Made by a program: the position numbers and the translations under genes. Of a DNA stretch of 64,000 nucleotides, positions 6,528 through 61,231 are shown one piece after another (the stretch's first letter is position 1; each line of letters opens with the position of its first letter). Origin of the DNA: Candidatus Daviesbacteria bacterium (lineage in GTDB: Bacteria > Patescibacteriota > Microgenomatia > Daviesbacterales > UBA10151); the NCBI GenBank assembly GCA_028715175.1, contig JAQUSJ010000001.1, forward strand, positions 71,760 through 135,759, given 5' to 3'. The notes below the pieces were generated by a model that saw only the letters and a list, made by a program, of their open reading frames with translations, was not told the DNA's origin and searched no databases.

Positions 6528-6562
6528 AAAAAGTAACAAGTAACAGGTTTTTAAGTAACAAG
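6528..6562. repeat. Heptamer array (GTAACAA-like units); inverted partner of 6826-6860
   Basis: 'agtaacaagtaacaggtttttaagtaacaagtt' is read directly. Its reverse complement recurs at 6826-6860, so the pair flanks the four-helix-bundle gene. Confidence 0.6.
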
Positions 6563-6841
6563 TTATTTTTGAGAGAGAAAAAGCTTCCAGATGATACGAC
6601 CGGTTTCTTCACGAAGCAACATTATTTCATTATACCGATCTTGTCGTATAAATTTCCTTTTAAAAGCAAAATCCAATAAGTATTCTGTTTCTGCTAAAGA
6701 ACCTAAAGCAATAGATAAGAAACGATGGAATTCCTTCCTATTGTTTCTAGCATGGCCTTCGACTATATTCGTAGGTACAGAAAGAGCAGCTCTTTGTAAC
6801 TGTGACACCAGTCCAAATAATTCCTTATTATTACTTGTCAC
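6563..6841 (-). CDS. Four-helix-bundle protein (23S rRNA intervening-sequence protein family, PF05635-like; Avd-like fold)
   Basis: 'VPTNIVEGHARNNRKEFHRFLSIALGSLAETEYLLDFA' is the signature of this family. Confidence 0.75.
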   Translation of the reverse strand: MTSNNKELFGLVSQLQRAALSVPTNIVEGHARNNRKEFHRFLSIALGSLAETEYLLDFAFKRKFIRQDRYNEIMLLREETGRIIWKLFLSQK

Positions 6842-6860
6842 TTTTGTACTTGTTACTCAG
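6826..6860. repeat. Heptamer array (TTGTTAC-like units); inverted partner of 6528-6562
   Basis: 'ttattacttgtcacttttgtacttgttactcag'. Confidence 0.55.
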
Positions 6861-9006
6861 TGGCTTTTGGCCACGATGTTACCATAATAGACTTGCCTTG
6901 ATGAGGCAATCTCTGCCAGAGCTCTTCTGTGATAAAGGGCATAAATGGATGTAAAAGCTCTAAACAAGTCCTGAAAACATATTCCAAAACAGGTTGAGCT
7001 TCGGCTCGTCGGTCTTTGGTGGATTCAATATACTTGTCTGCAAACTCATGCCAGATGAATTCATAAAGGGTATCTGCTGCATCATGAAACCGGTAAGAAT
7101 TGATAGCTTTTGAGGTGACTTCTATAGTTTTGGATAATTTTTCCAGGATATCCTCATCGTCCGGATTTATATTGTCATTCTGGGGAGCGTTAGCGACTCT
7201 AGAATCTGATTCTGGACAAGCCAGAATGACAGAGGGGTTTAGATGTTTTGCGTCATCCGGAGCAAAGTCAACGATAAATCTGCCGATATTCCAAAGTTTA
7301 TTGGTAAAGTTTCTCATGGCTTGCAGTTTAGGGTGCGAGAGGGATTGATCATGGCCAAAAGCAGTGCCATATACTAAAGCTAATCTGGCAGCATCTGCCC
7401 CGTATTGATCGGCAATATCCATAGGTGAAACCACATTATTTTTGGATTTGCTCATTTTTTTACCCAACGGATCAAGGACCATACCATGCAAAACAATATC
7501 CTCAAATGGAATTTTGCCTGTTGCATAAATTCCCATCATGACCATCCTGGCCACCCAGAAAAATAAAATATCACGGCCGGTTTCCATGATTGTAGTGGGA
7601 TAAAATTTTTCAAAATCCCCTGGGCGTGTGGTTTGTAAAGTAGCGAAGGGCCACTGACCGGATGAAAACCAGGTATCAAAAACATCTGGGTCTCTTTCCA
7701 ATAATTTACTGTTACAGTTAGGACATTTTGGCGGAGTTTCCCCTTCAGTGACTATCCATTGGTCGCAACCGTTGCAAAACCAGGCCGGGATTTGTATGCC
7801 CCAGACAATTTGGCGGGAGATATTCCAGTCTTTGATATTTTTTAACCAGTTAAAGTAAGTCTTTTCAAAATTCTTGGGGTAGATTTTAATTTCACCTTTT
7901 TTAATAACCTCGATGGCCGCTTTAGCCAGCTCTGCCGTTTTAATAAACCATTGCTCCGAGGGCAGTGGTTCTATTTCAGTGCCGCATTTATAACAAACAC
8001 CGACCCGGTTTTTATAATTTTCATCTATTTTTTCAATTAAGTTCTTTTCCAGCATTTCTTTGGCAATGGCTGCTCGAGCCTCTTTTACAGTCATGCCGGA
8101 AAATTTGCCGGTTTTCTCATTTAACCTGCCGTCATAGCCAATCACTTGCCGGATTTCTAAATTATGCCGTTGTCCTATTTCAAAATCCAACATAGAATGA
8201 GCAGGGGTGACTTTGATAACTCCGGTTCCAAATTCCGGATCAACTGCGCTGTCAGCAATAACTTTGATTTTGGCGGGTCCCAGGACTGTTTCTATATCAA
8301 TTATTTTGCCAATGTATTTTTGGTAGCGGGAATCATCAGGGTGTACTGCCACGGCAGTATCACCGAATTTGGTTTCCAGCCTGGTGGTAGCCAGTGTCAG
8401 TGGTCCGTATTTAATGTAGTAAAGTGGGCTAATTCGGTCTTCGTATAGAACTTCCAGGTCAGAAAAGCTGGTGCCGTGTTTGGTGCAGAAGTTGACAATC
8501 CGGTTCCCCCGATAAACCAAACCGTCGTCAAACATTTTTTTAAAAGTCTTGTAAACAATTTTGATAATGTCCGGATCAAGGGTAAATTTCTCTCTTGACC
8601 AATCCAGGGAAAAGCCTAATCTACGCAGTTGTCCCTCCATTTCGCCTTTATTGTTTTGGACAAAATCCCAAATCATTTGGTAAAGCGTTTCTCGGTCAAA
8701 ATCAAAACGGGATTTGCCCTTTTTTTCCAGCTCTTTTTCAAAAACCACTTGAGTTTCAAATCCGGCATGGTCTGAACCAGGTAACCAGAGAGCTGAATCA
8801 CCCAACATGCGGTGAAATCTTATTAAAATATCCTCTACCACATACATGGCATGGCCAAAATGCAAGGGAGCATTGGCATTGGGAGGGGGAAGGATGATAG
8901 TGTAAGGTCTGCCTTTAGGGTGTATTTCAGGTTTAAAAAACCCCAGACCTTCCCAAAATTTATACCATTTAGATTCTACTTTTGTTTGGTCATAAGTTTT
9001 ATCCAT
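6853..9006 (-). CDS. valS: Valine--tRNA ligase (class I aaRS, compact form without a long C-terminal coiled coil)
   Basis: HIGH-type motif 'PPPNANAPLHFGHA', 'KMSKSKNNVV', an editing-domain-sized insertion and the anticodon-binding region. Confidence 0.7.
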   Translation of the reverse strand: MDKTYDQTKVESKWYKFWEGLGFFKPEIHPKGRPYTIILPPPNANAPLHFGHAMYVVEDILIRFHRMLGDSALWLPGSDHAGFETQVVFEKELEKKGKSRFDFDRETLYQMIWDFVQNNKGEMEGQLRRLGFSLDWSREKFTLDPDIIKIVYKTFKKMFDDGLVYRGNRIVNFCTKHGTSFSDLEVLYEDRISPLYYIKYGPLTLATTRLETKFGDTAVAVHPDDSRYQKYIGKIIDIETVLGPAKIKVIADSAVDPEFGTGVIKVTPAHSMLDFEIGQRHNLEIRQVIGYDGRLNEKTGKFSGMTVKEARAAIAKEMLEKNLIEKIDENYKNRVGVCYKCGTEIEPLPSEQWFIKTAELAKAAIEVIKKGEIKIYPKNFEKTYFNWLKNIKDWNISRQIVWGIQIPAWFCNGCDQWIVTEGETPPKCPNCNSKLLERDPDVFDTWFSSGQWPFATLQTTRPGDFEKFYPTTIMETGRDILFFWVARMVMMGIYATGKIPFEDIVLHGMVLDPLGKKMSKSKNNVVSPMDIADQYGADAARLALVYGTAFGHDQSLSHPKLQAMRNFTNKLWNIGRFIVDFAPDDAKHLNPSVILACPESDSRVANAPQNDNINPDDEDILEKLSKTIEVTSKAINSYRFHDAADTLYEFIWHEFADKYIESTKDRRAEAQPVLEYVFRTCLELLHPFMPFITEELWQRLPHQGKSIMVTSWPKATE

Positions 9007-9758: not shown

Positions 9759-10934
9759 TTAGGATAAGGATAAATTGGGGTTGGCTTGGAGTTTTAAGGG
9801 GTTAATGGGATGGAAGTTATAAAAGACAGCAGCGGCAATCATGGCTGCATTATCAGTGCAGAGCTCTGGTGGTGGTACAGAGAGTCTGATAGCTGAAGAC
9901 TGACATCTGATAGCTAATTCTGAGACCAGTTTCTGGTTAGCGGCTACACCGCCAGCGATCATTATTTGGTTGACTTTGTAAGTTTGAACGGCTTTGATAG
10001 TTTTGGCAACTAAAACATCAACAATAGCAGCTTCTATGGAAGCACAAAAATTAGCCAGCTCGGGGTCCTGCCGGCTCGATATCCCGTCGTACATCCTCAC
10101 TCGACTTCGCTCGCTGCGGCTACGCGCCGGGATGCCCTTCTTGCCGTCACCCCTCACCTCCTTTAGCAGATTTGCCACCGCTGTTTTTAAGCCGGAAAAG
10201 GAGAAATCAAAATCTTTGGAATCTATCATCGGTCTAGGGAGACTAAACCTCAAGGCGTCCCCTTGCGAGGCTAAATTGGCAATGGCCGGTCCTCCCGGGT
10301 ATGGCAGTCCCAGGAGTCTGGCGCATTTATCAAAACACTCTCCGGCTGCATCATCTCTGGTTCCGCCTAAATACTCATATTTGCCATGATCTTTAAATAA
10401 AATCAGATCTGTGTGCCCACCGGACACAAGCAGGCCAATGCAGGGGAATTGAGGGTAGCTTTCAGTCTTCAGTATCGCTTCGTCCGCCTTTGGCGTGGCT
10501 TCGCTGTCAGCTTTCAGACTTGTTTTGTCTGACGACTGACGACTGACGACTGACGACTGAGCACCCCAATTTGCATAAAAGTGTCCGAGCAGGTGATTTA
10601 CAGGAATAAGAGGTTTATTCCATAAAAAAGCTAGTGTTTTGGCAGTTTCTACGCCAATCAGAAGTGAGCCAATTAGTCCGGGTCCTTGTGTGATTGCAAT
10701 TGCATTTAACTTGTTACTTGTTACTTGTGCCTTATTCAAACCTTCCTCAATTACCGGTATAATGCTTCTTAATTGTTCTCTGGCAGCTTGCTCAGGTATC
10801 ACGCCTCCATATTTTGCCTGGATAGAAGCTGATGATGCCACAACATTGGATAAAATTTTTATCCGATTTCCGGTCTTTTGTACTACTGCAGCCGCAGTTT
10901 CATCACAGGAGGTTTCGATACCAAGAATTATCAT
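9759..10934 (-). CDS. tsaD: tRNA N6-adenosine threonylcarbamoyltransferase TsaD (Kae1/YgjD family), carrying several in-frame repeat-derived insertions
   Basis: 'MIILGIETSCDETAAAVV', 'GGVAAN' and 'CTDNAAMIA' motifs. At 391 aa it is about 50 aa longer than typical TsaD. The extra segments coincide with the repeats at 9886-9924, 10075-10165, 10480-10560 and 10708-10728. Confidence 0.85.
   Translation of the reverse strand: MIILGIETSCDETAAAVVQKTGNRIKILSNVVASSASIQAKYGGVIPEQAAREQLRSIIPVIEEGLNKAQVTSNKLNAIAITQGPGLIGSLLIGVETAKTLAFLWNKPLIPVNHLLGHFYANWGAQSSVVSRQSSDKTSLKADSEATPKADEAILKTESYPQFPCIGLLVSGGHTDLILFKDHGKYEYLGGTRDDAAGECFDKCARLLGLPYPGGPAIANLASQGDALRFSLPRPMIDSKDFDFSFSGLKTAVANLLKEVRGDGKKGIPARSRSERSRVRMYDGISSRQDPELANFCASIEAAIVDVLVAKTIKAVQTYKVNQIMIAGGVAANQKLVSELAIRCQSSAIRLSVPPPELCTDNAAMIAAAVFYNFHPINPLKLQANPNLSLS
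9886..9924. repeat. Repeat 'ctgatagctgaagactgacatctgatagctaat' (same family as 17474-17498 and 41398-41409)
   Basis: The 18-mer 'ctgatagctgaagactga' is shared with 17474-17491, and 'ctgatagctaat' with 41398-41409. It is translated in frame in tsaD as 'ELAIRCQSSAIRLS'. Confidence 0.7.
10530..10560. repeat. Tandem heptamer (TGACGAC)x4, in frame in tsaD
   Basis: Read directly. It encodes 'VVSRQSSDK' on the coding strand. Confidence 0.85.
10708..10728. repeat. Tandem heptamer (ACTTGTT)x3, in frame in tsaD (encodes 'KAQVTSNKLN')
   Basis: Read directly. It is the same unit as the arrays flanking the four-helix-bundle gene. Confidence 0.75.
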
Positions 10935-17420: not shown

Positions 17421-17498
17421 GCTGTCAGCTCTCAGTCGTCAGTCGTCAGACTTGTAATTTTCTTAGTCTGAAGGCTGATAGCTGAAGACTGATGACTA
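17421..17498. repeat. Palindromic element built from heptamer units: 'tcagtcgtcagtcgtcagac', a 14-nt spacer, then 'gtctgaaggctgatagctgaagactga'
   Basis: Read directly. It sits between a -10/SD-like 'gggtataattgaaaaggag' and the ATG at 17502. Confidence 0.7.
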
Positions 17499-19418: not shown

Positions 19419-20378
19419 AAGCGGTAGATTAATTAGCTGGACTTCGGGTTCTAAGGTGATGCCGAATTTTTCTTTGACTTTTTGGGCATATTGTTTTGCC
19501 AATTCACAGAAAGCTTTGGCAGTGCCGCCGCCTGTATTTATAAACAAATTAGCATGGTTCGGTGAAATTTCTATTCCGTCTAATAATTTCCCTTTAGCTC
19601 TGACTGCTTCAAGTAGTACTCCGGCTGGCAGTTTCCCGTAAACTATTTTTTCTGGCTGGATCCTATCCAAAATATCTTTTGGTAAAGTTTCTGCCACAAT
19701 ATTTTTGAAAAAAGACCCAGGGCATTTTATGCCGGGAGGGTATTTAACCAGCCTTTTTGCAAGGATCTCTTTAACTTCCTGTTGCAAGGCTTCCGGATCG
19801 CCACTTTCCAGCTTGAAAGTAACTTCCAGAATAATGTCATGGTTTTGTTTGAAGATACTATCCCGATAATTAAACTGACATTCTTCTTTTGAAAGAGTAG
19901 TTATATTCTTCGCTTCACTCAGAATGACAACAGAGATAATATGATCGGAAATTGTTTGGCCATAAGCTCCGGCATTTCCATAAACTGCTCCGCCAACAGT
20001 ACCCGGAATCCCGGTGAGTTTTTGCAGTCCAGAAAACTCATTTTCGATGGTGTAATCAACAAAATCCTGCAAAAGAGTGCCACTTTTAACACTCAACATC
20101 ACACCTCCGAGGTGTAACAGCATTTCTTCACCTCGGAGGTGAGTTTCTTCTATGCCGGAAACCTCATTTTTAATAACCAAACAATCTATTCCTTCATCAG
20201 AAACTAATAAGTTGCTGCCGCCGCCAATTATCAGATAAGACATTAATTGATCTTTGGCATATTTTATGGCTTCTATTAATTCTTCCTCTGTTTTAACCTT
20301 GACAAATTTTTTGGCAGGGCCACCAATTTGTAAGGTGGTTATTTGACTCATTGGATAGTTATCCTTAAATTTAAGCAT
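19410..20378 (-). CDS. murB: UDP-N-acetylenolpyruvoylglucosamine reductase
   Basis: FAD-binding 'LQIGGPAKKF...IIGGGSNLL' N-terminus and the MurB C-terminal domain. Confidence 0.85.
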   Translation of the reverse strand: MLKFKDNYPMSQITTLQIGGPAKKFVKVKTEEELIEAIKYAKDQLMSYLIIGGGSNLLVSDEGIDCLVIKNEVSGIEETHLRGEEMLLHLGGVMLSVKSGTLLQDFVDYTIENEFSGLQKLTGIPGTVGGAVYGNAGAYGQTISDHIISVVILSEAKNITTLSKEECQFNYRDSIFKQNHDIILEVTFKLESGDPEALQQEVKEILAKRLVKYPPGIKCPGSFFKNIVAETLPKDILDRIQPEKIVYGKLPAGVLLEAVRAKGKLLDGIEISPNHANLFINTGGGTAKAFCELAKQYAQKVKEKFGITLEPEVQLINLPLLN

Positions 20379-25028: not shown

Positions 25029-25622
25029 ATGGTTAAGTTTCATTACCGCGAGTCTCCTACCGAAAAGCAAAAAAAGGCTTTCAGAAAATATTTATCTGAA
25101 GATGAAGAATTGGTTTTGGTAACCAGTCTATCTAAAGCTTATATAAGATCTAAGTTTATACTTAACTTACTTTTCCCGGGAATGCTATTTTTGGGGCTTG
25201 GTTTAGGGGTAGGATGGTTTTTTAATATTGGCAGAATTTGGGCCCTTGTTTTGGGATTAGGATTTATGTTTTTATCAGCCATACTTAAAACGATGCATGT
25301 TTATCATGCCAACAGATATTTGTTAACCACCAGAAGAGTCATTATTAAAAAAGGGTTATTCTCTGTTAAGCTGACTGCCGCACTTTTTGATAAAATTACC
25401 AATCTAGTGGTAGACCAATCGATTATTGACAGGTTGCTTTTACATCACGGTACCATTGTTGTAAATACAGCCGGAGTCAGCAAAGGAGAAATAATATTGA
25501 AATATGTGGATTCGCCTATGGAACTCAAAAATTTACTTGAAAGGTTAATTAACCGTGAAAGGGAACAATTTGGACTAAGGGGAGCTAGCTTAACAGAAGT
25601 GGAAGGAGAGATTATTACGTAG
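25029..25622 (+). CDS. Bacterial PH-domain (YdbS/YdbT-like) membrane protein
   Basis: Two TM helices followed by a bPH_2-like domain ('LLTTRRVIIKKGLFS'). Its last 26 codons lie in direct repeat A. Confidence 0.5.
   Translation: MVKFHYRESPTEKQKKAFRKYLSEDEELVLVTSLSKAYIRSKFILNLLFPGMLFLGLGLGVGWFFNIGRIWALVLGLGFMFLSAILKTMHVYHANRYLLTTRRVIIKKGLFSVKLTAALFDKITNLVVDQSIIDRLLLHHGTIVVNTAGVSKGEIILKYVDSPMELKNLLERLINREREQFGLRGASLTEVEGEIIT
25539..25616. repeat. Direct repeat A (the actual 3' end of the PH-domain gene)
   Basis: Aligned by eye with 30223-30300. Confidence 0.85.
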
Positions 25623-30222: not shown

Positions 30223-30300
30223 GAAAGGTTAATTAATCGCGAAAGAGAACAATTTGGACTAAGGGGAGCTAGCTTAACAGAAGTGGAAGGAGAGATTATT
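30223..30300. repeat. Direct repeat B (a non-coding duplicate of the PH-domain gene 3' end, att-like)
   Basis: It starts 7 nt after the M16 peptidase stop. It would encode 'FLERLINREREQFGLRGASLTEVEGEIIS*'. Confidence 0.85.
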
Positions 30301-36018: not shown

Positions 36019-36906
36019 CTAAATCTTAAATATCTTTTTAGCATTCTCCGTAGTTTGATTAGAAACCGTTTCAAATGTGATTCCTTTGAGATTAGCGATC
36101 AGACGGGCAATTTCTTTGACGCTAGAGGGTTCATTCCTTTGGCCACGTTTACTTTGGGGAGCGAGAAACGGGGAATCGGTTTCTAAAAGGATCCGTTCTA
36201 AAGGGATAATTTTGGCGGCTTCCCTTAAGTATTCATTTTTGGGGTAAGTGATATTAGCTGCAAAAGCCACTAAAAAGTTAGTAGTCTGTAGTAGGTAGTT
36301 GGTAGTTTGGGGAAGACCGGAATAGCAGTGATAAACTCCAAAATGATCTTTGGTCATATCAATAGCAGTTTGCCAGCATTCGGAATTTTCAGGATTTTTT
36401 GAGCGGTCATCACGGCAATGAACAACTAAAGGCAGATTTAATTTTTTGGCCAAATCAATTTGGGCCTGAAAAAGTTTTTTCTGGAGAATTTTAATCTGGT
36501 CTGGTGGAATAGATGGAGGAGTGAAACCAGGATTGCTGTTAAAGAAAAAATCCAGCCCACATTCTCCAATCCCAGCGACCTTTTCTGAATTACTTCTATA
36601 AATCTCTTCTAATTGGGTTATATCGTTTACCAAATCCTTTTGTACGTTTGTACCACGATCGGAGGATGTTTATGATTGTTGGTATTTAATTGCTTCGTGC
36701 GGATGGATGCCGATAGTGGAATATACTGATAAACCTTTAGGCCATTTAGTATTTTTAGCCTGATTCAAAGCTTCCTTGCTTTTTTCAATATCTACTCCAA
36801 TGTTGATGATTGCAGAAATTCCGCTATCTAAAGCTCTTTGGATTACTTCATCAAAATCTTCTTTATATGATTCCCAGTAAAGATGGGCATGTGTATCAAT
36901 TAACAT
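36019..36906 (-). pseudogene. tatD: TatD-family hydrolase interrupted by a single in-frame TAA (fragments 36670-36906 and 36019-36633)
   Basis: N-terminal fragment 'MLIDTHAHLY...IGIHPHEA' and C-terminal fragment '...AGIGECGLDFF...ETDSPFLAP' are in the same frame, separated by TAA plus 12 codons. The C-terminal fragment also contains heptamer repeat 36280-36310. Confidence 0.55.
36280..36310. repeat. Heptamer array (GGTAGTT-like), in frame in tatD (encodes 'PQTTNYLLQTTNFL')
   Basis: 'gtagtctgtagtaggtagttggtagtttgg'. Confidence 0.7.
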
Positions 36907-36926: not shown

Positions 36927-36988
36927 TGTCATCCTGAGGCGATTAGCCGAAGGATATGATTATATTCTTCACTTCGTTCAGAATGACG
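36927..36988. repeat. Palindromic repeat element, GTCATCCTGAGCG family (intergenic tatD/metG)
   Basis: 'tgtcatcctgaggcgattagccgaagga...cttcgttcagaatgacg' imperfect inverted repeat. Confidence 0.75.
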
Positions 36989-40975: not shown

Positions 40976-42169
40976 TTAGTTTTCTAAAAGCGCTGCGGCG
41001 TAATTTTCCAGTTCCTTTTGTTTGCCAGGGGAATATTTTTTTGCTTCAAAGTATTTTTTTAAAGCAGCAATAGGAGTTAAACTTTCTACATCTTTTCCTA
41101 AATCGATTTTTTCCCTTTCAACTTTTTCAATGTTTCGGGAAATTCCAGCTAAAATATGAGCGGAAGATAGTGCTTTTTTAATTTTGTCCATCTCAATATC
41201 TTTATCCAACTCTGCCGGTATATTTATTACCAGCCGGATAATTTTATCAGCAAGAGCGCACTTTTTAATTTCATCTAATACTATTTGGGTTGGGTCAAGA
41301 TCTGTAGTTTTTAAATTAACAGTAACTGTTAAAAATTTTCTTGCTCCTGAGGGAATAAATTTATAGCTTGTTTCAAATTTATCTGACGACTGACGACTGA
41401 TAGCTAATATCTCGACTATTATAAAACCTTTTTCTTCTTTCTCTTCGCCGAAATCTATCCGCTCTGGAGAACCGGAGTAAACAATTAGTGGTCCGGCACC
41501 TGCCGGACTAGAAAGAACTTGATGTTTGTGAATATGGCCTAAAGCCACATAAGAGATCCTTTTATCTTGAAGAAGCGGCAGAGGAATTGTGATATCGTTT
41601 CCGATAGCCAGTCCCTTTTCCGACCCAAAAACTGAACCTTCAATTTCGGCATGCGAGGCCAGTATTGCAGGTCCGCCAGCTGGCGGAGGCTTAATTTTTT
41701 CATACATAAGTTTTAATTTTTCGGCAACTTGCTTGTAGTCATTTTTATGGAGCCAGGGAAGAGTAATAACTTGTAAATTGCCGGATTTGGTCTTAATTTG
41801 CAAAAGTTCCGGAAATCTTGAAACCCAGACATTTTCTATCTCCAGGGCAGAGTAGATATCCAAAGTATTGGCTTTGCCTTCTGCATTTGGAGTGTCATGG
41901 TTTCCCACCACCAGCACAACAGGGATTTTTTTGGCCAGTATCTTAATTCTTTCTCCAAATCCCCGCTGTTGGGTGGGGTTTGGATCTCTGGTTTTATAGG
42001 CATCTCCTGCAAAAATGACTGCGTCAACCTGCTCTTCAAAAGCTTTTTCCACTATAAAATCAAAAGTCTTAAAAAAGTCGAGTAATCTGGTAGAAAGTCC
42101 GGTTTCCGGATCCAACCTGGTATAATTTTCCATACCAATATGCAGGTCGGAAAAATGAAGTAGTTTCAT
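40976..42169 (-). CDS. sbcD: SbcD/Mre11-like nuclease
   Basis: 'LLHFSDLHIG', 'GDAYKTRDP' and 'GNHD' calcineurin-like phosphoesterase motifs. It contains the in-frame repeat at 41383-41409. Confidence 0.85.
   Translation of the reverse strand: MKLLHFSDLHIGMENYTRLDPETGLSTRLLDFFKTFDFIVEKAFEEQVDAVIFAGDAYKTRDPNPTQQRGFGERIKILAKKIPVVLVVGNHDTPNAEGKANTLDIYSALEIENVWVSRFPELLQIKTKSGNLQVITLPWLHKNDYKQVAEKLKLMYEKIKPPPAGGPAILASHAEIEGSVFGSEKGLAIGNDITIPLPLLQDKRISYVALGHIHKHQVLSSPAGAGPLIVYSGSPERIDFGEEKEEKGFIIVEILAISRQSSDKFETSYKFIPSGARKFLTVTVNLKTTDLDPTQIVLDEIKKCALADKIIRLVINIPAELDKDIEMDKIKKALSSAHILAGISRNIEKVEREKIDLGKDVESLTPIAALKKYFEAKKYSPGKQKELENYAAALLEN
41383..41409. repeat. Repeat 'ctgacgactgacgactgatagctaat', in frame in sbcD (encodes 'ILAISRQSSDK')
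   Basis: Same family as 10530-10560 and 9886-9924. Confidence 0.8.
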
Positions 42170-43972: not shown

Positions 43973-45040
43973 TTATTTCCCAATCAATTTTAGCAAAAAA
44001 ATTTTGAGTGGAGTTAAGCGGTCTACAGCAGTAAACAGCCAATATACCGGCCAGTTAAATACCAAATCATAAGTCCCGATATATTCTGTTAATTGTCCTC
44101 CATATCCCTGTTTAAACTTATGAAAGCCAAACCAGGGATCTTTTGGATTTGCATCAGGACCCAGGGCTCCCCACATGTCAAACTTTTTAAAACCCATTTT
44201 TTTACCTAATTTTATAGCTTCCCAGGCCACTAAATTATTTGCCATTACCTCCGGGTGGATTTTGGAAGAACCGCCGTAAGGGTAATAAAGAGTACCTTTA
44301 AAATTTAACAGCATCCAGGCAGTTAAGGGTAGTTGGTAGTAAGCAATAAGTAAACGAGCCATGCCGGCATTTTTCAGGGTTTGCCAGACTTTGCGGTGAT
44401 AGTTTTTATTATGTCCATGATAACCTTGTCTTTTGGTAGTTTCAAAATATAATTTTAAATAAATTTCAAAAGCCTCATCGTCCCTTCTTTCTTCCACTCT
44501 TACTCGATGTTTTTGGGCAACCTTGATGTTGTATCTGGTTTTCGGGTGCATTTTTTTTAAAAGTTCTTCTTCTGATTTTGTTAAATCAACAATAAAATTA
44601 TATTTAGTAAATAACGGTTTAGGGGATTTGATAAAATTCGTATCAACGCTGTCATTCTGAGCGATTAGCGAAGAATATAATTCTGGGTTTATATCCTTCG
44701 TTTCACTCAGGACGACAGGATGAATGTTAGCGATGACATCAGGCTCTATTTTTATGAAAGCGCAATTATTTTCCTGGCCGATTTTTTTTAAAGCTTTTGC
44801 TAATTCTTTGTTAGGGAATGGACCTTTTGGGAGGTAGCCGACGTATTGGTTTGTAAAGGGAATCTTATGTAAAGTTAGCTGGAAGGCTTTGGATAATTTG
44901 TTTCCGTGGTATATGCCGTAGCGCAGAAGCGGAATTTGTAGAGATTTTCTAAACTCTCCCCATTCGTATGACTGGATGACATGAGTAACTAATTTGTTGT
45001 ACTGTGATTTTTGTTTGTCGCCGATTGGTCGTAAATCCAT
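43973..45040 (-). CDS. FemAB-family peptidoglycan bridge-formation (aminoacyltransferase) protein
   Basis: FemABX-like length and the 'KTRYNIK' motif. It contains an in-frame palindromic element at 44650-44717. Confidence 0.6.
   Translation of the reverse strand: MDLRPIGDKQKSQYNKLVTHVIQSYEWGEFRKSLQIPLLRYGIYHGNKLSKAFQLTLHKIPFTNQYVGYLPKGPFPNKELAKALKKIGQENNCAFIKIEPDVIANIHPVVLSETKDINPELYSSLIAQNDSVDTNFIKSPKPLFTKYNFIVDLTKSEEELLKKMHPKTRYNIKVAQKHRVRVEERRDDEAFEIYLKLYFETTKRQGYHGHNKNYHRKVWQTLKNAGMARLLIAYYQLPLTAWMLLNFKGTLYYPYGGSSKIHPEVMANNLVAWEAIKLGKKMGFKKFDMWGALGPDANPKDPWFGFHKFKQGYGGQLTEYIGTYDLVFNWPVYWLFTAVDRLTPLKIFLLKLIGK
44650..44717. repeat. Palindromic repeat element, GTCATTCTGAGCG family, in frame in the FemAB-family gene (encodes 'VVLSETKDINPELYSSLIAQND')
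   Basis: 'gtcattctgagcgattagcgaagaatata...tatatccttcgtttcactcaggacgac'. Confidence 0.8.
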
Positions 45041-47220: not shown

Positions 47221-47223
47221 TGT

Positions 47224-47265
47224 ATAGATCCTTCGACTCTCCGGCTTCCGCCGGATCGCTCAGGA
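47224..47265. repeat. Half palindromic element, identical over 42 bp to 60813-60854
   Basis: 'atagatccttcgactctccggcttccgccggatcgctcagga' is read at both loci. Confidence 0.85.
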
Positions 47266-47271
47266 CGCCTT

Positions 47272-49257
47272 TCAGGCGTTTAACCAGTCATCTTCGTCAA
47301 TTGAGTTTGATATATCACTTGCTGTATTGGGTTGATCTTTGTCTCTGTAATTTGTATTACTACTGATCAAGTTTTCCGGAATGTCTATTAAGAATCTGGA
47401 AACCAGGTTGTTGCTTCGTGTACCAAAGTACAATCTTTGCCCGGTATAAGTTAAATAAAGTTTTTCTTTGGCGCGGGTGATGCCGACATACATAAGTCTT
47501 CTTTCTTCTTCCAGTTCCCGGACATCCAGCATGGATCTGGAGTGAGGGAATAAACCTTCTTCCATGCCAACCATGAAAACAATTGGGAATTCCAATCCTT
47601 TGGCGCTATGGAGAGTCATTAAAGTTACGGCATCAACCGGCTGTTTGCTGTTAGTTTTTCGCTTTTGACCAGGTATGTTGCCGTTTTCCACCAGAGCCAC
47701 TTTTTCTAAAAACTCTGTTAAATCAGAGAACTGTTCCGCAACCGAGCGAAGCTCTTTAACATTTTCCGCGCGCATTTTGCCTTCTTCGCTGCTGTCATCA
47801 AGATATGCCAAATACCCTGTTGCCTGTAGGATTTTGTCTAAAAGTTCTAAGGTAGTGTAAGGCAGATTGTCATTCTGAGGCGGAGCCGAAGAATATAAAT
47901 TAGATCCTTCGTTGTCGCTCAGGATGACAGAGCGAAGCTCTATCGCTTTTGATAATCTGCCTTTACCAATTTTTTCGGCTCTCTTTAAAGAAATAGAATC
48001 TTCGGGATTTTGGAGTAAACGGAGATAGGCGAGAATATCCTTAATTTCTTTTCTGGCATAGAAGCTGACCCCGCCTACTAATTTATAAGGTATGCCGACT
48101 TTCAGGAATTGTTCCTCCAGAGCCCGGGATTGGGCATTAGTTCTGTAAAGAATAGCATATGAGTTTAGAGTTCGTAGTTCGTAGTTCGTAGTTTTTTTGT
48201 CTTTACTATGAACTAATAACTCTGAACTATGAACTATTTTGTCTACGACAAAATTAGCTTCTTCAACCTCATTTCTTGTTTCAACTACCTCTATTTTTTC
48301 TCCTCCATCTTTCTTGGTCCAGAGTTTTAAGATGGGATGAGATTTATTTTTGGAGATGACAGCAAAGGCAGCATCCAGGATATTTTGAGTGGAACGGTAG
48401 TTTTGTTCCAGATTAAAGATCGCTACATTCGGATAATCCTTTTGGAAATTAACAATATTGCGAAAATCTGCTCCTCTAAACGAGTACACACTTTGGCTTG
48501 CGTCCCCCACAACACAAATATTTTTATGGCGGTTACTCAAGTATTTTGAAATCAGATATTGAGCAGGATTAGTATCCTGGTATTCATCAATTAAAATATA
48601 CTTAAATTGAATTTGGTATCTGGTTAAAATTGCTGGTTCGGCTTGGAATAATTTAATTACATATAATAATAAATCATCAAAATCCAGAGCATGGTTTCTT
48701 TCCAGAATTTTTTGATATTCCAAATAAATTTTCGCTACAATTTCCTGAAAATAACCCCGGGCATATTGAGGGTATTCTAAAGAAGAAATTAATTCATTTT
48801 TTGCCCCTGATATAGTGGATCTAACAGAAAAAGGAGAAGTTTTTTGAAGCGGGATATTTAAATTACCCATAGCTTCTTTGACAGCATCCAAAGCATCACC
48901 TTCATCATAGATAGCAAAACCGGGAGGCAACTTCAAGACTTTGCCGTCCCGGCGCAAAACCCTGGCGCAAAAACTATGAAATGTTCCCATCATTGGTTCG
49001 TGGTTTGCTGCCAGCGGTTCATTGGCCAAAAGTTTCCTGATACGTTCCATCATCTCGCCGGCCGCTTTATTAGTGAAAGTCAAAACCAGGATATTTTCCG
49101 GAGGAATTTTCTTTTCGGAAATTAAATAAGCCACCCGGTAGGTTAAAACTCTGGTTTTGCCTGAACCGGCTCCGGCCAAAATAAGAGTCGGACCCTCAGT
49201 TGCTTTAACAGCTTTCTGTTGTGCGGGATTTAGATCATTTAAAAGAGAATTGGGCAT
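47272..49257 (-). CDS. pcrA: UvrD/PcrA-family ATP-dependent DNA helicase, carrying three in-frame repeat insertions
   Basis: 'LILAGAGSGKTRVLTYRVAYLI' Walker A plus helicase motifs. It contains repeats at 47866-47930 and 48163-48240. Confidence 0.85.
   Translation of the reverse strand: MPNSLLNDLNPAQQKAVKATEGPTLILAGAGSGKTRVLTYRVAYLISEKKIPPENILVLTFTNKAAGEMMERIRKLLANEPLAANHEPMMGTFHSFCARVLRRDGKVLKLPPGFAIYDEGDALDAVKEAMGNLNIPLQKTSPFSVRSTISGAKNELISSLEYPQYARGYFQEIVAKIYLEYQKILERNHALDFDDLLLYVIKLFQAEPAILTRYQIQFKYILIDEYQDTNPAQYLISKYLSNRHKNICVVGDASQSVYSFRGADFRNIVNFQKDYPNVAIFNLEQNYRSTQNILDAAFAVISKNKSHPILKLWTKKDGGEKIEVVETRNEVEEANFVVDKIVHSSELLVHSKDKKTTNYELRTLNSYAILYRTNAQSRALEEQFLKVGIPYKLVGGVSFYARKEIKDILAYLRLLQNPEDSISLKRAEKIGKGRLSKAIELRSVILSDNEGSNLYSSAPPQNDNLPYTTLELLDKILQATGYLAYLDDSSEEGKMRAENVKELRSVAEQFSDLTEFLEKVALVENGNIPGQKRKTNSKQPVDAVTLMTLHSAKGLEFPIVFMVGMEEGLFPHSRSMLDVRELEEERRLMYVGITRAKEKLYLTYTGQRLYFGTRSNNLVSRFLIDIPENLISSNTNYRDKDQPNTASDISNSIDEDDWLNA
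47866..47930. repeat. Palindromic repeat element, GTCATTCTGAGGCG...CGCTCAGGATGAC, in frame in the helicase gene (encodes 'SVILSDNEGSNLYSSAPPQNDN')
   Basis: Read directly. Confidence 0.85.
48163..48240. repeat. Two adjacent heptamer arrays, (GTTCGTA)x3 and (TATGAAC)-like x4, in frame in the helicase gene (encode 'IVHSSELLVHSKDKKTTNYELRTLNS')
   Basis: Read directly. Confidence 0.8.
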
Positions 49258-49904: not shown

Positions 49905-49950
49905 GCTCGCGCGACCAAGTCGCTCGCTTGGGATTTGTTTCGCGCCAAGC
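49905..49950. repeat. GC-rich nested hairpin element 'gcgcgaccaagtcgctcgcttgggatttgtttcgcgc', related to the GC-rich insert in tsaD (10095-10130, 'gacttcgctcgctgcgg')
   Basis: Stems gcgcga/tcgcgc and ccaag/cttgg are read directly. Confidence 0.5.
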
Positions 49951-51964: not shown

Positions 51965-52580
51965 AGCTTCCAGAAGGAAATTAGGAGAACTGCGCAAGAA
52001 ATTTGATCCTGATAATGTTGTAGTTTTTGATGCTCAAGCAAGTTCAGGACAAGTAATTGCCAATTTAATGACGGTTCCTATGTTTTCCGAGGAAAGGTTG
52101 ATTATCTGGGAAAACCCAATTGATGTTTTTGAACCACCAACTACCAACTACCAACTACCAACTACTCTAATCCTATGGTTTGATCATATTATAGATACAA
52201 AAAAATGGCCGGGGTTTGAATACCTGTTTTTCCCGGAAAGTAAAGAAATTTCCGTATTTCCATTTTTGGATTATTTGGCAGCTCATGATAAAAAAGCTTT
52301 CTTAGAAGTGGAGAAATTAAAAAAAGCAAATTTCGATGTCCACTATCTCATAACTATGGTTTTTTATCTGTTGCGGAATTTGGTAGTTACTCCTAAAACC
52401 GCGCCTCCCTTTGTTAAGCAAAAACTTGCCAAACAAAGAAGTAATTTTAGCAAAGAAAGATTAATAAATCTTTACAGGGATATTTTAGAAATTGAATTTA
52501 AAATTAAGTCAGGTTTATTGGAAAAAGACCAGGCAGAATTTTTACTGGTTAATAAATTCATTGGGAGCCTAATGATTTGA
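51930..52580 (+). CDS. holA: DNA polymerase III delta subunit-like protein
   Basis: 'LLVLHGPAIEASRRKL...LMTVPMFSEERLII' resembles the HolA N-terminus. It contains heptamer array 52133-52170. Confidence 0.4.
   Translation: MKLLVLHGPAIEASRRKLGELRKKFDPDNVVVFDAQASSGQVIANLMTVPMFSEERLIIWENPIDVFEPPTTNYQLPTTLILWFDHIIDTKKWPGFEYLFFPESKEISVFPFLDYLAAHDKKAFLEVEKLKKANFDVHYLITMVFYLLRNLVVTPKTAPPFVKQKLAKQRSNFSKERLINLYRDILEIEFKIKSGLLEKDQAEFLLVNKFIGSLMI
52133..52170. repeat. Tandem heptamer (ACTACCA)x4, in frame in the holA-like gene (encodes 'PPTTNYQLPTTL')
   Basis: Read directly. Confidence 0.85.
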
Positions 52581-57026: not shown

Positions 57027-58862
57027 GTGAATATCAGAAATTTCTCAATTATTGCTCATATTGACCACGGTAAATCTACTTTGGCAGACAGGCTGCTGGA
57101 GATTTGCCATACGGTTCCACCGGATAAAATGAAGCCGCAGCTTTTAGATTCTTTGGCGCTGGAGCGTGAACGTGGTATTACTATAAAACTTGCTCCTGTA
57201 AGATTGAAATACAATTTAGACGGTGTGGAATATGTCCTAAACCTGATTGATACACCGGGACATGTTGATTTTTCTTATGAGGTTTCCAGAGCTCTGGCAG
57301 CAGTTGAAGGCGCAATACTTTTAGTAGATGCAACCCAGGGTATTCAAGCGCAAACTTTGGCACACGGTTTGGCAGCTCTAGAGCAAAATTTAACGTTAAT
57401 TCCGGTAATAAATAAAATTGATTTACCGAATGCGGATATTGAATCAACAAAAAAACAACTTATAGAAACATTCGGATTTGCAGCAGAGGAGATATTGCTA
57501 GTGTCAGGCAAGACTGGTCAGGGTGTGCAGAAGCTTTTGGAAATAATAATTGAAAAAGTGCCTCCGCCTAAAATAGATCTTTTGTCACAAAGCTTCTCAG
57601 GACTGCAAGTCCTTCGGGCTCTTGTTTTTGATTCGTTTTTTGACAGCTTTAAAGGGGTGGTTGCCCAGGTACGAATTGTTGAAGGCCAGACACCAAAAAC
57701 TCAAGCCCCGATTATTTTTCTGGGGACTAAAGCTTCGGGCCATATCCTGGAAACCGGATTTTTTGCTCCTCAGCTTATTCCAAATAACGGTCTAAAAGCA
57801 GGAGAGATAGGTTATATTGCCACAGGCATTAAAGAGCCGGATTTAGTCAGAGTTGGTGATACAATAACAAGTTTATCGAATATCGAATATGGTACATCGG
57901 AAGACAAAAACGATAACCGATTAACGATAAACGATATACAACCTTTGCCAGGTTATAAGCAGGTTAAACCAATGGTTTTTGTGGGACTTTTTCCCATAGA
58001 CGCTGACGAGTATTTTGAATTGAAAGAAGCTTTGGCTAAATTTAGATTAACTGATCCTGCTTTTTCTTATACTCCGGAGCAATCACGAGCTTTAGGAGCC
58101 GGTTTTCGATGCGGGTTTTTAGGGTTACTTCATGCAGAGGTGGTACAGGAGAGGTTACTAAAAGAATTTAATGTCGATCTTTTGGCGACTGCTCCGTCAG
58201 TTGAATATTTGCTGGATAGAAAACCTATTATTTCACCAAGCGATTTGCCGCAAGGAACCAATATCAAGAATTTAGAAGAACCATGGGTAAATTTAAGGAT
58301 TTTTGTACCACAAACTTATATCGGTTCGGTTATGGAATTAGTACAAGATAAGAGGGGTAAGTTTTTAAACATGCAGCACTTTGGGATCCAAGTTGAACTG
58401 TTGTATGAGATGCCGCTTTCTGAGATGGTGACTAACTTTTATGATAAATTAAAATCAGTTTCTTCCGGTTTTGCTTCCCTGGACTGGGAGTTTTTGGATT
58501 TTCGGGAAGCGGATGCGGTCAGGGTAGATATTTTGGTTTCCGGGGAAAAAGTAGATGCTCTCTCAACTATTGTTTTTAGACCTAAGGCGGAAAGTTTTGG
58601 CAGGAGGATGGTGGAAAAATTAAAAGAAGTGCTGCCTCGGCAAAATTTTACTATTGCAATTCAAGCTGCTATTGGCGGGACTATTATTGCCAGGGAAACA
58701 GTCAGTCCTTTCAGAAAAGATGTTACAGCTAAACTTTATGGAGGAGATAGGACCAGAAAAGACAAACTTTTGGAAAAACAGAAAAAGGGTAAAAAGAAAA
58801 TGAAGACGATCGGTAGGGTACAGATACCGCAGGAAGCATTTTTAAGCGTTTTAAAATCTTAA
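57027..58862 (+). CDS. lepA: Elongation factor 4 (LepA)
   Basis: 'IRNFSIIAHIDHGKSTLADRLL', 'DTPGHVDF' and 'NKIDL' G-domain motifs, plus the LepA C-terminal domain. Confidence 0.95.
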   Translation: MNIRNFSIIAHIDHGKSTLADRLLEICHTVPPDKMKPQLLDSLALERERGITIKLAPVRLKYNLDGVEYVLNLIDTPGHVDFSYEVSRALAAVEGAILLVDATQGIQAQTLAHGLAALEQNLTLIPVINKIDLPNADIESTKKQLIETFGFAAEEILLVSGKTGQGVQKLLEIIIEKVPPPKIDLLSQSFSGLQVLRALVFDSFFDSFKGVVAQVRIVEGQTPKTQAPIIFLGTKASGHILETGFFAPQLIPNNGLKAGEIGYIATGIKEPDLVRVGDTITSLSNIEYGTSEDKNDNRLTINDIQPLPGYKQVKPMVFVGLFPIDADEYFELKEALAKFRLTDPAFSYTPEQSRALGAGFRCGFLGLLHAEVVQERLLKEFNVDLLATAPSVEYLLDRKPIISPSDLPQGTNIKNLEEPWVNLRIFVPQTYIGSVMELVQDKRGKFLNMQHFGIQVELLYEMPLSEMVTNFYDKLKSVSSGFASLDWEFLDFREADAVRVDILVSGEKVDALSTIVFRPKAESFGRRMVEKLKEVLPRQNFTIAIQAAIGGTIIARETVSPFRKDVTAKLYGGDRTRKDKLLEKQKKGKKKMKTIGRVQIPQEAFLSVLKS

Positions 58863-59837: not shown

Positions 59838-60486
59838 TATGAATAAAATTAAAGCAGTGCTTTTTGATATGGATGGACTGATGGTGGACACTGAACCTAT
59901 ACACCTTCGGGCTTTTAATTATGCACTGGGGAAATATGGCAAACATTTAACAGAGGAGGGAAATACCAGAAGGTATATTGGAACTCCTGATATTGATGGA
60001 GCAAAGGATATGGTGTTGAGATTTAGTTTACCTATATCTGCTCAAGAGCTTGTTATGGTTAAGAAAGCAAGGGTTAAAGAACTGCTGACAAGTCTAGAAC
60101 CAGAACCAGGTCTAATTGAACTGCTGGCAAACTTGAAGCAAAACGATTACAAAGTTGCAATTGCTTCCAGTTCTTACTTAGAAACGATAAGAAAAATTAT
60201 TCAAGATCTGGGAGTTGCTAAGATGATTGATAAATTAGCTTCTGCTGAAGAAGTCAAACAAGGTAAACCAGCACCTGATGTGTATTTACTAGCTGCAGAA
60301 AAATTAGGGGTAAGCCCTAGTGAATGTTTAGTGCTAGAAGATGCACCAAAAGGAGTTCAAGCAGGCAAGTTAGCTGGAATGAAAGTTTTTGCAATTCCCA
60401 GTCAGTACACAAAAGATGGGGATTTTAGTTTGGCAGATAAAGTATTGAGCAGTTTGTCTGAGGTGTTTGATTTAATTAACCTCTGA
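59830..60486 (+). CDS. HAD-superfamily hydrolase (beta-phosphoglucomutase-like subfamily IA)
   Basis: 'AVLFDMDGLMVDTE' motif I and 'VLEDAPKGVQAG' motif IV. Confidence 0.75.
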   Translation: MFNMNKIKAVLFDMDGLMVDTEPIHLRAFNYALGKYGKHLTEEGNTRRYIGTPDIDGAKDMVLRFSLPISAQELVMVKKARVKELLTSLEPEPGLIELLANLKQNDYKVAIASSSYLETIRKIIQDLGVAKMIDKLASAEEVKQGKPAPDVYLLAAEKLGVSPSECLVLEDAPKGVQAGKLAGMKVFAIPSQYTKDGDFSLADKVLSSLSEVFDLINL

Positions 60487-61231
60487 TAATTTTACAACTG
60501 GGACATCTTAGGGATTCTGCCTCATAAATTTTGGCGACTTGGTTTGATAATTTAAAGATTAATTCTGATCCCTCGTCAACTTTAAAAATATCAGGATTAT
60601 TGTCAAAAGACAGAGTGGCAGCTCCCCTAACCAATTTAAAAGTAGCTGTATCCTCATCCTTGAAAAAAACAGCTGGAATTTTTTCAGTAGTATTGTTAAA
60701 AGCTAACCCCCAACCTTTTTTAAAAGTTTGTCCGGTGATGCTTTTAAAATAACCGGTGGAGCCAAAAGGAGTAGATAAAACTATTCCGTCTCCAATGAAA
60801 AGCTGATTATTTATAGATCCTTCGACTCTCCGGCTTCCGCCGGATCGCTCAGGATGACTCGTTTCGCTCGTCACCTGGAAACGGATAGTATGTATAGGTT
60901 GGGCATTCCTGATGACAAAATCATTTAATGCTGTAAATGTCTGATATAAAATTGTAGTTTCCAGCTTTTTATACTCTTTTGTTTTTAACCCTCCTTCAAG
61001 CAGGCGCTTTAATAGAGTTTTTTCATCATGTTCGGGACATTTTTTACAAACGGAACTGGCCCTAATAGGTAATTTGGGAATTCCCGGATAAATTCTTTCT
61101 GAATACAAAAGAGTACCGTCTCCACCATAACTTATGATTACGTCAGGATTGGAATGAACTATTTCAAAACCGAAGCTTTTTACAAGCCCTATTATGTTTT
61201 TTGCATTTTTACCAATTAGTAATGTTTTCAT
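60476..61231 (-). CDS. nadK: NAD kinase, with an in-frame palindromic-element insertion
   Basis: 'GGDGTLL' and 'GSTGY' motifs. The inserted element is translated as 'ETSHPERSGGSRRVEGSINN'. Confidence 0.8.
   Translation of the reverse strand: MKTLLIGKNAKNIIGLVKSFGFEIVHSNPDVIISYGGDGTLLYSERIYPGIPKLPIRASSVCKKCPEHDEKTLLKRLLEGGLKTKEYKKLETTILYQTFTALNDFVIRNAQPIHTIRFQVTSETSHPERSGGSRRVEGSINNQLFIGDGIVLSTPFGSTGYFKSITGQTFKKGWGLAFNNTTEKIPAVFFKDEDTATFKLVRGAATLSFDNNPDIFKVDEGSELIFKLSNQVAKIYEAESLRCPSCKIIRG
60813..60860. repeat. Half palindromic element (GATCCTTCG...CGCTCAGGATGAC) in frame in nadK; 42 bp identical to 47224-47265
   Basis: Read directly. Confidence 0.85.

Follow-up and report, generated by a model that had tools for sequence, protein, structure and literature searches.

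The tsaD gene in the 64,000-nucleotide stretch of Candidatus Daviesbacteria DNA analysed here (the window) encodes an oversized version of the essential enzyme TsaD. We consider it likely that this is a functional gene that has taken up short, hairpin-forming, non-coding repeats at the level of its DNA, where they are read through as protein. Two events would have added length: the arrival of a GC-rich palindrome, here called element B, and that of a hairpin built from tandem heptanucleotide arrays, here called insertion A. The elements would be non-autonomous palindromic repeats that are translated within TsaD, a reading that draws on their anatomy and dispersal, their patchy phylogeny, an insert DNA conserved far above its host gene, covariation in the stems and the usage of reading frames. 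The positions of all features are collected in Table 1.

The TsaD of the window scores 377.8 bits against the TIGR03723 equivalog model (cutoff 296.1) and matches PF00814 of Pfam with E = 1e-89, and its closest solved structures are the TsaD proteins of Salmonella and E. coli (E = 8e-77 and 6e-74 in a phmmer search of PDB chains). As the solved bacterial chains have 327-354 amino acids (aa), the 391-aa window protein has about 50 aa extra. An earlier reading, made from the sequence alone (the sequence-only reading), had called this protein oversized, and it is indeed so; that reading also asked whether the catalytic residues are conserved, and they are. H114, H118 and D361 align to positions 111, 115 and 300 in the chains from E. 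coli and Salmonella, and the metal ligands of the E. coli enzyme are H111, H115 and D300. All three query residues are invariant across 36 homologs, together with the GPG, SGGHT, DDAAGE and GGVAAN motifs of the ASKHA fold. An AlphaFold model built on the homolog alignment has a mean predicted local distance difference test (pLDDT) value of 83.7 and a predicted template modelling (pTM) score of 0.83; in Foldseek it matches E. coli and Salmonella TsaD (4ydu, 4wq5, 3zet) with target-normalised TM scores of 0.90-0.93, and the two-domain Kae1/TsaD ASKHA fold is present. As modelled, the His-His-Asp metal site and the fold are left intact despite the inserts, and the insert-bearing enzyme would be expected to retain its activity. 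The nearest homologs belong to the Candidate Phyla Radiation (CPR), namely Candidatus Daviesbacteria, Daviesiibacteriota and other Microgenomates, and the gene order PD-(D/E)XK nuclease, tsaD, small open reading frame (ORF), valS is also kept in one relative. The host is a CPR bacterium, Microgenomates or Daviesbacteria-like. CPR bacteria are ultra-small, and this host is uncultivated.

The sequence-only reading had proposed four in-frame insertions in tsaD, numbered (i) to (iv) by increasing coordinate, from three repeat families. All four repeat-like stretches exist near the places it gave, and the count of families is roughly right: (i) and (iii) belong with the TCAG/CTGA heptamer, (iv) with the AAGTAAC heptamer, and (ii) is the GC-rich palindrome. 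However, only (ii) and (iii), our insertions B and A, add length. When the protein is aligned by phmmer with E. coli and Salmonella TsaD, gaps occur only at query aa 122-157 and 265-292, which correspond to 4 and about 2 residues of E. coli TsaD, respectively. Similarly, we measured the lengths of the four variable segments in an alignment of the 120 best homologs. The segment that holds (iv) has 15 aa in 87 of the 120, as it has in the query, and the one that holds (i) has 17 aa in 35 and 19 aa in 77, the query (17 aa) falling in the shorter of the two common classes. Site A varies from 4 to 52 aa (4-5 aa in 33 of the 120; 37 aa in the query) and site B from 10 to 60 aa (42 aa in the query). 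The net gain is about 32 aa for insertion A, reckoned from the relatives with 4-5 aa at that site, and 28-30 aa for insertion B, and regions (i) and (iv) contribute none. In the AlphaFold model, low confidence is confined to residues 128-156, 266-269 and 274-282, all of them coil; insertion A (pLDDT 41-52) lies in the linker after the HxxxH helix, and insertion B (pLDDT 45-56) lies between helices 247-260 and 291-319. Residues 69-76 and 338-350, in contrast to these, are confident helix or strand (block pLDDT 89-97), so regions (i) and (iv) do not stand as insertions by alignment gaps, homolog lengths or model confidence.

Insertion B is an imperfect palindrome with a GC content of 0.667 in a window of 0.385, and it lies inside the longest GC island of the window (10049-10158, GC 0.65). 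Its coding strand reads AGGGGTGACGG...CAGGACCCCGAG, which is translated as RGDGKKGIPARSRSERSRVRMYDGISSRQDPE, and the conserved ends of the element are GGGGTGACGG...CAGGACCCC. The element B covariance model gives 103 bits for this copy (E = 8e-23) and, with E <= 10 and filters off, matches nothing else in the window; the kinship that the sequence-only reading saw between (ii) and a hairpin at 49905-49950 is thus not borne out. The family comprises at least 14 strong covariance-model matches (59-106 bits) on about 13 contigs, with lengths of 87-98 nucleotides (nt). Metagenome contigs were also scanned with the pattern GGGGTGACGG N50-80 CAGGACCCC, which gave at least 120 matches, most of them chance occurrences in GC-rich DNA or unrelated families that share the termini; by alignment score and low-GC context, at least nine are true members, in low-GC CPR-like contigs. 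These copy numbers are lower bounds.

The places in which element B occurs are diverse. It is found at the same tsaD site in locus L081 (protein P0004, 75% identical to the query over core columns) and in L103 (P0013), in L003 and L002 at tsaD site A instead, and in frame elsewhere in CPR contigs, in SecA, L10, L1 (twice), RadA, DinB, NusG and a large membrane protein; variant elements with its termini occur in a UvrD-like helicase and in IleRS. Copies stand in both orientations and in alternative frames, those of SecA and RadA being in the opposite orientation, and internal indels of 1-2 nt give rise to differing peptides, such as RGDG...SRQDPE, RGDGEEGSRR...EPAGPR and, from the reverse strand, RGPAGSVSRR...SPSPL. 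A profile of the duplicated 68-aa peptide of element B matched only three short proteins and was uninformative.

Several observations were made beside this family. About ten other loci, together with L089, L144 and L163 (one contig, Ga0208953_1000157), hold a separate 82-nt repeat family with element B termini, AGGGGTGACGGG...CCCCGGCAGGACCCCGAA, in several copies per contig on moderately GC-rich metagenome contigs; this hints that hairpin elements with conserved ends make up a larger superfamily. In the tsaD of L081 (4012-5226), the peptide VSNLLKE just upstream of element B is repeated as VSNLIKT, the two flanking 11 extra aa, perhaps a duplication of 21 nt that goes back to an earlier event at that site; the same gene also has a 25-aa insert at a further site, S0 (...NRFRNKFGMTK...). 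At 3565-3658 and surroundings of L160, an N-terminal extension of NusG seems to be a stack of three segments derived from repeats: a peptide that resembles the TCAG heptamer (VISDQSSDKTSE), element B, and an element ending '...DPSLIAQDDK'.

The distribution of element B among TsaD proteins is patchy. It occupies site B in 11 of the 120 homologs, which are scattered, and for nine of these carriers it is absent, or an unrelated insert present, in the four neighbours closest by core identity (0.72-0.81), while the other two have one or two carrier neighbours. None of the nearest TsaD neighbours of the query carries it, and across relatives at least six unrelated insert families are found at site B. 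Comparison with close relatives, which the sequence-only reading had recommended, shows (ii) and (iii) to be absent or replaced by unrelated sequence in the nearest of them; as their DNA also recurs elsewhere, they are not lineage-typical segments shared by repeat-free relatives.

Where the elements do recur, they are far better conserved than the genes around them. Element B of the window shares 92.6% identity with that of L081, against 69.8% for the tsaD core and 44% for its third codon positions, and between the window and L082, insertion A is 88% identical at the nucleotide level, against 66.8% and 42.5%. Six of the seven substitutions that separate the element B of the window from that of L081 are non-synonymous. 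We also considered recombination that would have imported the inserts with flanking gene sequence, and rejected it because no extended tract of raised identity surrounds either insert. Taken together, the patchiness, the high identity of the inserts, the lack of such a tract and the unconserved peptide suggest that the elements were acquired or homogenised well after the divergence of their host lineages. Judged from these sequence comparisons, A and B are DNA-level elements and not conserved protein loops.

Furthermore, it is the hairpin of element B that appears to be kept. Eleven copies fit one structure of 27 pairs, 11 of which have compensatory double changes; 95.9% of the cells are paired, against 29-43% in slid controls, and the covariation score reaches 0.391, compared with 0.169 for shuffles and less than 0.05 for slid controls. 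The whole element is an imperfect palindrome whose terminal inverted repeats, GGGGT...ACCCC, are invariant, the termini having been fixed by the search pattern. On one strand, the stems have 17 cells with G-U pairs and 5 with A-C mismatches, an excess that hints at a strand-specific single-stranded intermediate. The reading frames tell of a second constraint. In the sense strand of genic copies, only frame 0 is free of stops; nearly all copies have stops in frames +1 and +2, and all three antisense frames are open. Frame 0 is used in every sense-oriented genic copy, and the sole non-genic copy has a stop in it. Such a pattern would be expected under selection on translation and speaks against removal of the element before translation.

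Insertion A has a different anatomy. On the coding strand its parts follow in the order (TCAGTCG)4.6-TCAGAC-aaaacaa-GTCTGAAAGCTGACAG-21-nt GC mini-hairpin-...CTGAAGACTGAAAG; the two heptamer arrays, inverted with respect to each other, form the arms of a hairpin with a folding energy of -44.5 kcal/mol. The 21-nt mini-hairpin, GAAGCCACGCCAAAGGCGGAC, lies in a GC island (10475-10511) and is missing from the L082 copy in a pairwise alignment. Hairpins of the A type also occur at site A of tsaD in L082 and L001, and other units are found at this site in relatives (ACTACCG and CGGAAGA in L083, TCAGCTA in L001, AGTTCAA in L008). An intergenic hairpin of the window has the same architecture, and here too the frame appears to matter: a 7-nt unit passes through all three frames, so that three successive CTGA units would put TGA in frame. 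In the genic copy at most two such units stand in a row and TGA is never in frame; the intergenic copy has four.

Regions (i) and (iv) have the heptamer periodicity as well. Region (iv) aligns without gaps, residue for residue, to GLTAKDID of E. coli TsaD (pLDDT 96-97); its unit recurs at 6531-6545 and 6831-6857, and its peptide, QVTSNKL, is also present in the RadA linker of another CPR contig. The two recurrences form inverted arrays (AAGTAAC/TTACTTG), 266 nt apart within the spacer beside the stop codon of valS. Region (i) forms helix and strand (pLDDT >= 89) and is 86% identical to 41380-41408. In L083, the closest relative with DNA compared, the orthologous region (i) has about 9 point differences in 39 nt and no indel. 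In most relatives the sites C and S0 are heptamer-periodic with other units (GAACTAG, GAGCTAG, CAATCAT, TAACTAT, AACGATT). As (i) and (iv) add no length and relatives are periodic there with other units, the periodicity has been laid over sequence of normal length, and it may have come about through replacement or homogenisation in situ.

The preference for a period of seven extends well beyond this gene. The window has six exact period-7 arrays, against none in shuffles and 0-1 for periods 5, 6 and 8-12, and period 7 makes up 17 of its 45 rows in Tandem Repeats Finder (TRF), most of them inside ORFs. Across 53 CPR-like loci (332 kb) there are 62 period-7 arrays, and none of the other periods between 5 and 12 exceeds 7 arrays; in 30 non-CPR loci (197 kb) there are 4 arrays of period 7. 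The repeat-in-gene phenomenon thus appears widespread in CPR, and tsaD is enriched within it. In the 52 CPR loci with a mapped tsaD, arrays number 0.63 per kb inside the gene against 0.099 per kb in the flanks, and in the 41 distant CPR loci alone 0.51 against 0.123 (binomial p = 3e-6), a density four to six times that of the flanks. In query numbering, the arrays of these 52 genes fall at site A (14), site C (7), S0 (6), around 224-226 (5), site B (3) and around 20-22 (2), that is, in the same five or six loops with lineage-specific units. The sequence-only reading had called the tsaD of the window a hot spot; from the density in tsaD and its flanks across CPR loci, this holds on a broader scale than proposed, that of the radiation as a whole. 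A link between the heptamer unit and the 7-nt anticodon loop was considered and dropped, as most units do not fit.

These data bear directly on the strongest alternative, in which the heptamer stretches, insertion A included, were made in place by a period-7-specific mutational process (slippage, or template switching on hairpins) that overwrites or expands weakly constrained segments, with selection keeping length and frame. We think this rather unlikely as an account of tsaD. It would explain why (i) and (iv) are periodic without a change of length, why sites C and S0 are periodic in most relatives with different units, why the arrays cluster at a few loops with lineage-specific units, and why period 7 alone is enriched. 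However, it does not sit easily with an insertion A that is 88% identical at the DNA level between genomes whose tsaD genes are 67% identical, while closer relatives lack it, or with the same composite hairpin in an intergenic position, and it leaves element B wholly unexplained.

It is improbable that the inserts are vertically inherited functional loops of CPR TsaD, replacing for example contacts with TsaB, TsaE or tRNA, and that their likeness to repeats is compositional. In most TsaD proteins of Microgenomates (327-445 aa) these two loops are likewise expanded, and the four- to sixfold richness of tsaD in heptamer arrays could hint at a gene-specific role. Yet close relatives have unrelated sequences at one and the same site, 33 of the 120 homologs have no insert at A, and element B recurs in unrelated proteins, at site A of TsaD, and in further frames and orientations that yield unrelated peptides. 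Moreover, the changes between the window and L081 copies of element B are largely non-synonymous while the stems covary, and the inserts are predicted to be disordered.

Least probable of all is that the hairpins are intervening sequences removed by RNA processing, RNA splicing or protein splicing to leave a TsaD of normal length in the cell: CPR rRNA genes do carry intervening sequences, the hairpins are strong and covary, and the G-U excess suggests that a single-stranded nucleic-acid form matters, but all genic copies are stop-free and in the host frame although two of three sense frames have stops (a constraint that excision would lift), the opposite-orientation copies of SecA and RadA would give a different RNA, inserts of 32-37 aa fall well below the size of an intein (TsaD and HypF_C_2 being the only Pfam matches), and Rfam gives no intron family match.

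The explanation that we favour, incorporation of repeat elements at the DNA level, could then work as follows. Elements without an ORF of their own would be spread by a mechanism acting in trans, both within CPR genomes and from one to another, for which the likeliest mobiliser would be an enzyme that recognises single-stranded hairpins, as in the pairing of repetitive extragenic palindromic (REP) sequences with REP-associated tyrosine transposases (RAYT) or in the insertion sequence (IS) group IS200/IS605; for the heptamer arms, slippage or recombination would be a likelier route. In essential genes, selection would spare only in-frame, stop-free copies in permissive surface loops, and the product would be a disordered, hydrophilic loop rich in R, S, D, G and K, with fold and metal site untouched. 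Regions (i) and (iv) would reflect a genome-wide 7-nt periodicity imposed on sequence of normal length.

Several points weigh against this explanation. The window has only the one copy of element B, and no transposase, RAYT or integrase is found among its 59 long ORFs. The flanks of element B share (C)GA...GAG(CG), which is possibly part of the element, and no clear target-site duplication or filled-versus-empty pair was seen among the compared copies; mobility is therefore deduced from distribution and not from mechanism. The outermost helices and ends of element B are invariant because they formed the search pattern, an effect of ascertainment. Recurrence at the same site, in the same orientation and frame, in distant relatives would need a site preference or very strong selective filtering. 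An ancient insertion followed by strong DNA-level conservation and many losses is still formally conceivable, and the differing heptamer units at the same tsaD loops across lineages fit generation in situ at least as well.

Table 1. Position of tsaD, its repeat-derived segments and other features in the window
Feature	Position	Strand	Remarks
tsaD ORF	9759..10934	-	391 aa, intact, catalytic core conserved
D361, third metal ligand, in CTDN motif	9852..9854	-	codon GAT
Region (i), degenerate (TCAGNNN)x4-TCAGAC	9883..9924	-	encodes AIRCQSSAIR; found by regular expression; TCAGNNN x4 part at 9883-9910 (coding strand); not an insertion
Insertion B (element B), GC-rich imperfect palindrome	10059..10154	-	96 nt; aa 261-292; gap against E. 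coli TsaD
Insertion A, hairpin with heptamer-array arms	10455..10565	-	aa 124-160, GAQSSVVSRQSSDKTSLKADSEATPKADEAILKTESY; gap against E. coli TsaD
Insertion A, right arm, GTCTGAAAGCTGACAG ... CTGAAGACTGAAAG	10461..10519	-	interrupted by nested 21-nt GC-rich mini-hairpin GAAGCCACGCCAAAGGCGGAC
Insertion A, left arm, (TCAGTCG)x4.6 ending TCAGAC	10526..10560	-	CTGACGA array on + strand; TRF: CTGACGA x4.6 at 10529-10560, period 7, 100% matches
HxxxH metal-binding motif, H114 and H118	10581..10595	-	five residues upstream of insertion A; codons checked
Region (iv), ACTTGTT x2.9, coding strand CAAGTAA	10709..10728	-	encodes QVTSNKL; found by TRF; not an insertion
Intergenic heptamer-armed hairpin, architecture of A	17425..17492	+	(TCAGNNN)3-TCAGAC-loop-GTCTGA-(NNNCTGA)3; -33.9 kcal/mol
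Heptamer array in tatD	36276..36307		GGTAGTT
Heptamer array in metallophosphoesterase gene	41380..41400		
Heptamer array in uvrD/pcrA	48161..48237		inverted pair (hairpin)
Heptamer array in holA-like gene	52130..52168		AACTACC, reverse complement of tatD array
Heptamer array in lepA	57874..57936		inverted pair (hairpin)
valS	6853..9006		
In-frame palindrome in valS	7135..7248	-	GTCATTCTGG...CCAGAATGAC; encodes SVILACPESDSRVANAPQNDN; termini of 'VILSEAKNI' family
28-nt repeat in murB	19901..19928		GTCATTCTGAGTGAAGCGAAGAATATAA (coding strand)
28-nt repeat, intergenic	36960..36987		
28-nt repeat in femAB-like gene	44689..44716		
48-nt GC-rich hairpin repeat, intergenic	47223..47270		96% identical to copy below
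48-nt GC-rich hairpin repeat in ORF 60476-61231 (-)	60812..60859		read in frame as SHPERSGGSRRVEGS; ORF without Pfam match
78-nt direct repeat, first copy	25539..25616		96% identical to second copy
78-nt direct repeat, second copy	30223..30300		
SAM riboswitch RF00162	12956..13058	+	49.7 bits

Besides tsaD, the genes of the window with such repeats are valS, murB, a femAB-like gene, uvrD, lepA, holA and tatD. Palindromes that are GC-rich or of the form GTCATTCTG...CAGAATGAC stand in frame in valS, murB, the femAB-like gene and one unassigned ORF, and two of the three copies of the 28-nt repeat are read in frame, as VILSEAKNI and VVLSETKDI. The 78-nt direct repeats enclose a 4.7-kb block of lower GC with genes for a methyltransferase, a YcaO cyclodehydratase, a nitroreductase/SagB-like protein and an M16 peptidase. 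This block resembles a cluster for ribosomally synthesized and post-translationally modified peptides (RiPPs) of the thiazole/oxazole-modified microcin (TOMM) type and may be an inserted island. The S-adenosylmethionine (SAM) riboswitch, the sole Rfam match of the window (no family matches elements A or B), is flanked on one side by a GHMP-kinase-like gene and on the other by genes of the opposite strand that encode S-adenosylhomocysteine hydrolase and a PfkB kinase.

We put forward a broader idea more tentatively, as one that has perhaps a third of a chance of being right: that a CPR/Patescibacteria-wide, as yet undescribed process makes or spreads heptamer hairpins and GC-rich palindromes and so continually seeds new translated, disordered loops in essential proteins, with tsaD as a preferred target and a mechanism tied to the period of seven. 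We found no description of heptamer repeats or coding palindromes in CPR in the literature collection that we searched. In-frame selfish palindromes in essential genes have so far been treated as a peculiarity of Rickettsia, and the cases of TsaD, SecA, NusG, L1 and L10 suggest a more general route to new protein segments in reduced genomes; if true, a CPR-wide process would add to that of Rickettsia another instance of protein-coding palindromes, and one of far greater breadth. The 7-nt unit is enriched inside ORFs though it is not a multiple of three. TsaD itself, with two to six recurrent landing sites that take unrelated elements in different lineages, offers a natural insertion-tolerance scan of an essential enzyme. 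There is also a practical side, as such inserts can inflate or distort statistics of protein length, homology and annotation for CPR proteins.

Several known systems resemble these elements in part. The heptamers recall the short tandemly repeated repetitive (STRR) heptanucleotide sequences of heterocystous cyanobacteria, reportedly described by Mazel et al. in 1990, with which they share a lineage-wide enrichment of 7-nt tandem repeats and several unit families per genome. Unlike STRR, they are found in a different phylum and have units (TCAGTCG, AAGTAAC, AACTACC and others) that differ from the STRR consensus, and the arrays are often inside ORFs, read in all frames, often in inverted pairs and clustered in particular protein loops. 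STRR sequences have been used for fingerprinting (PMC5088731).

In Borg elements, tandem repeats within ORFs create intrinsically disordered regions (PMC9879509). As in the CPR genes, fast-evolving intragenic DNA repeats there add disordered, hydrophilic segments; unlike the elements here, the Borg repeats are direct tandem arrays and not palindromes. As far as is known, Borg intragenic repeat units are multiples of three, whereas the 7-nt unit of the CPR arrays means that the frame is kept only for the insert as a whole. Nematomorph mitochondrial genes have coding palindromes (PMC6649704), and these too are long, hairpin-forming inverted repeats in coding sequence with both arms translated. 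That case, however, is organellar and eukaryotic, and it was not shown as a dispersed family among unrelated genes or genomes.

With transposable elements of the miniature inverted-repeat kind (MITEs) and with REP sequences and bacterial interspersed mosaic elements (BIMEs), a group that includes ERIC, BOX, Correia and REP-RAYT, element B shares a small imperfect palindrome, conserved ends, the lack of coding capacity and dispersed copies, and bacterial elements of the MITE and REP types occasionally form in-frame fusions with host ORFs (PMC10969869). Unlike MITEs, it shows no detected target-site duplication, nor do the 59 long ORFs of the window include a cognate IS, transposase or RAYT; unlike REP sequences, which are extragenic by definition, most of its copies are intragenic.

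The closest analogue is the family of Rickettsia palindromic elements (RPEs), in-frame protein-coding palindromes that occur in many unrelated genes (Ogata 2000, 2002, as summarized in PMC10969869). The CPR elements differ from RPEs in several ways: the host belongs to the CPR/Patescibacteria (free-living or episymbiotic), the elements are GC-rich in an AT-rich genome and are shorter (87-98 nt, against about 100-150 bp), and a single family is read as protein in three or more frames or orientations, alongside heptamer-array hairpins that are absent from RPEs. We do not claim them as members of that family, and sequence homology would not be expected across phyla, but by analogy they seem to work in the same way, as short, non-autonomous palindromes dispersed in a reduced genome, both outside genes and in frame in unrelated housekeeping genes. 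RPEs are compatible with the fold of the host protein through their placement in surface loops; the TsaD inserts, predicted to be coil between secondary-structure elements with the core unchanged, may be accommodated likewise.

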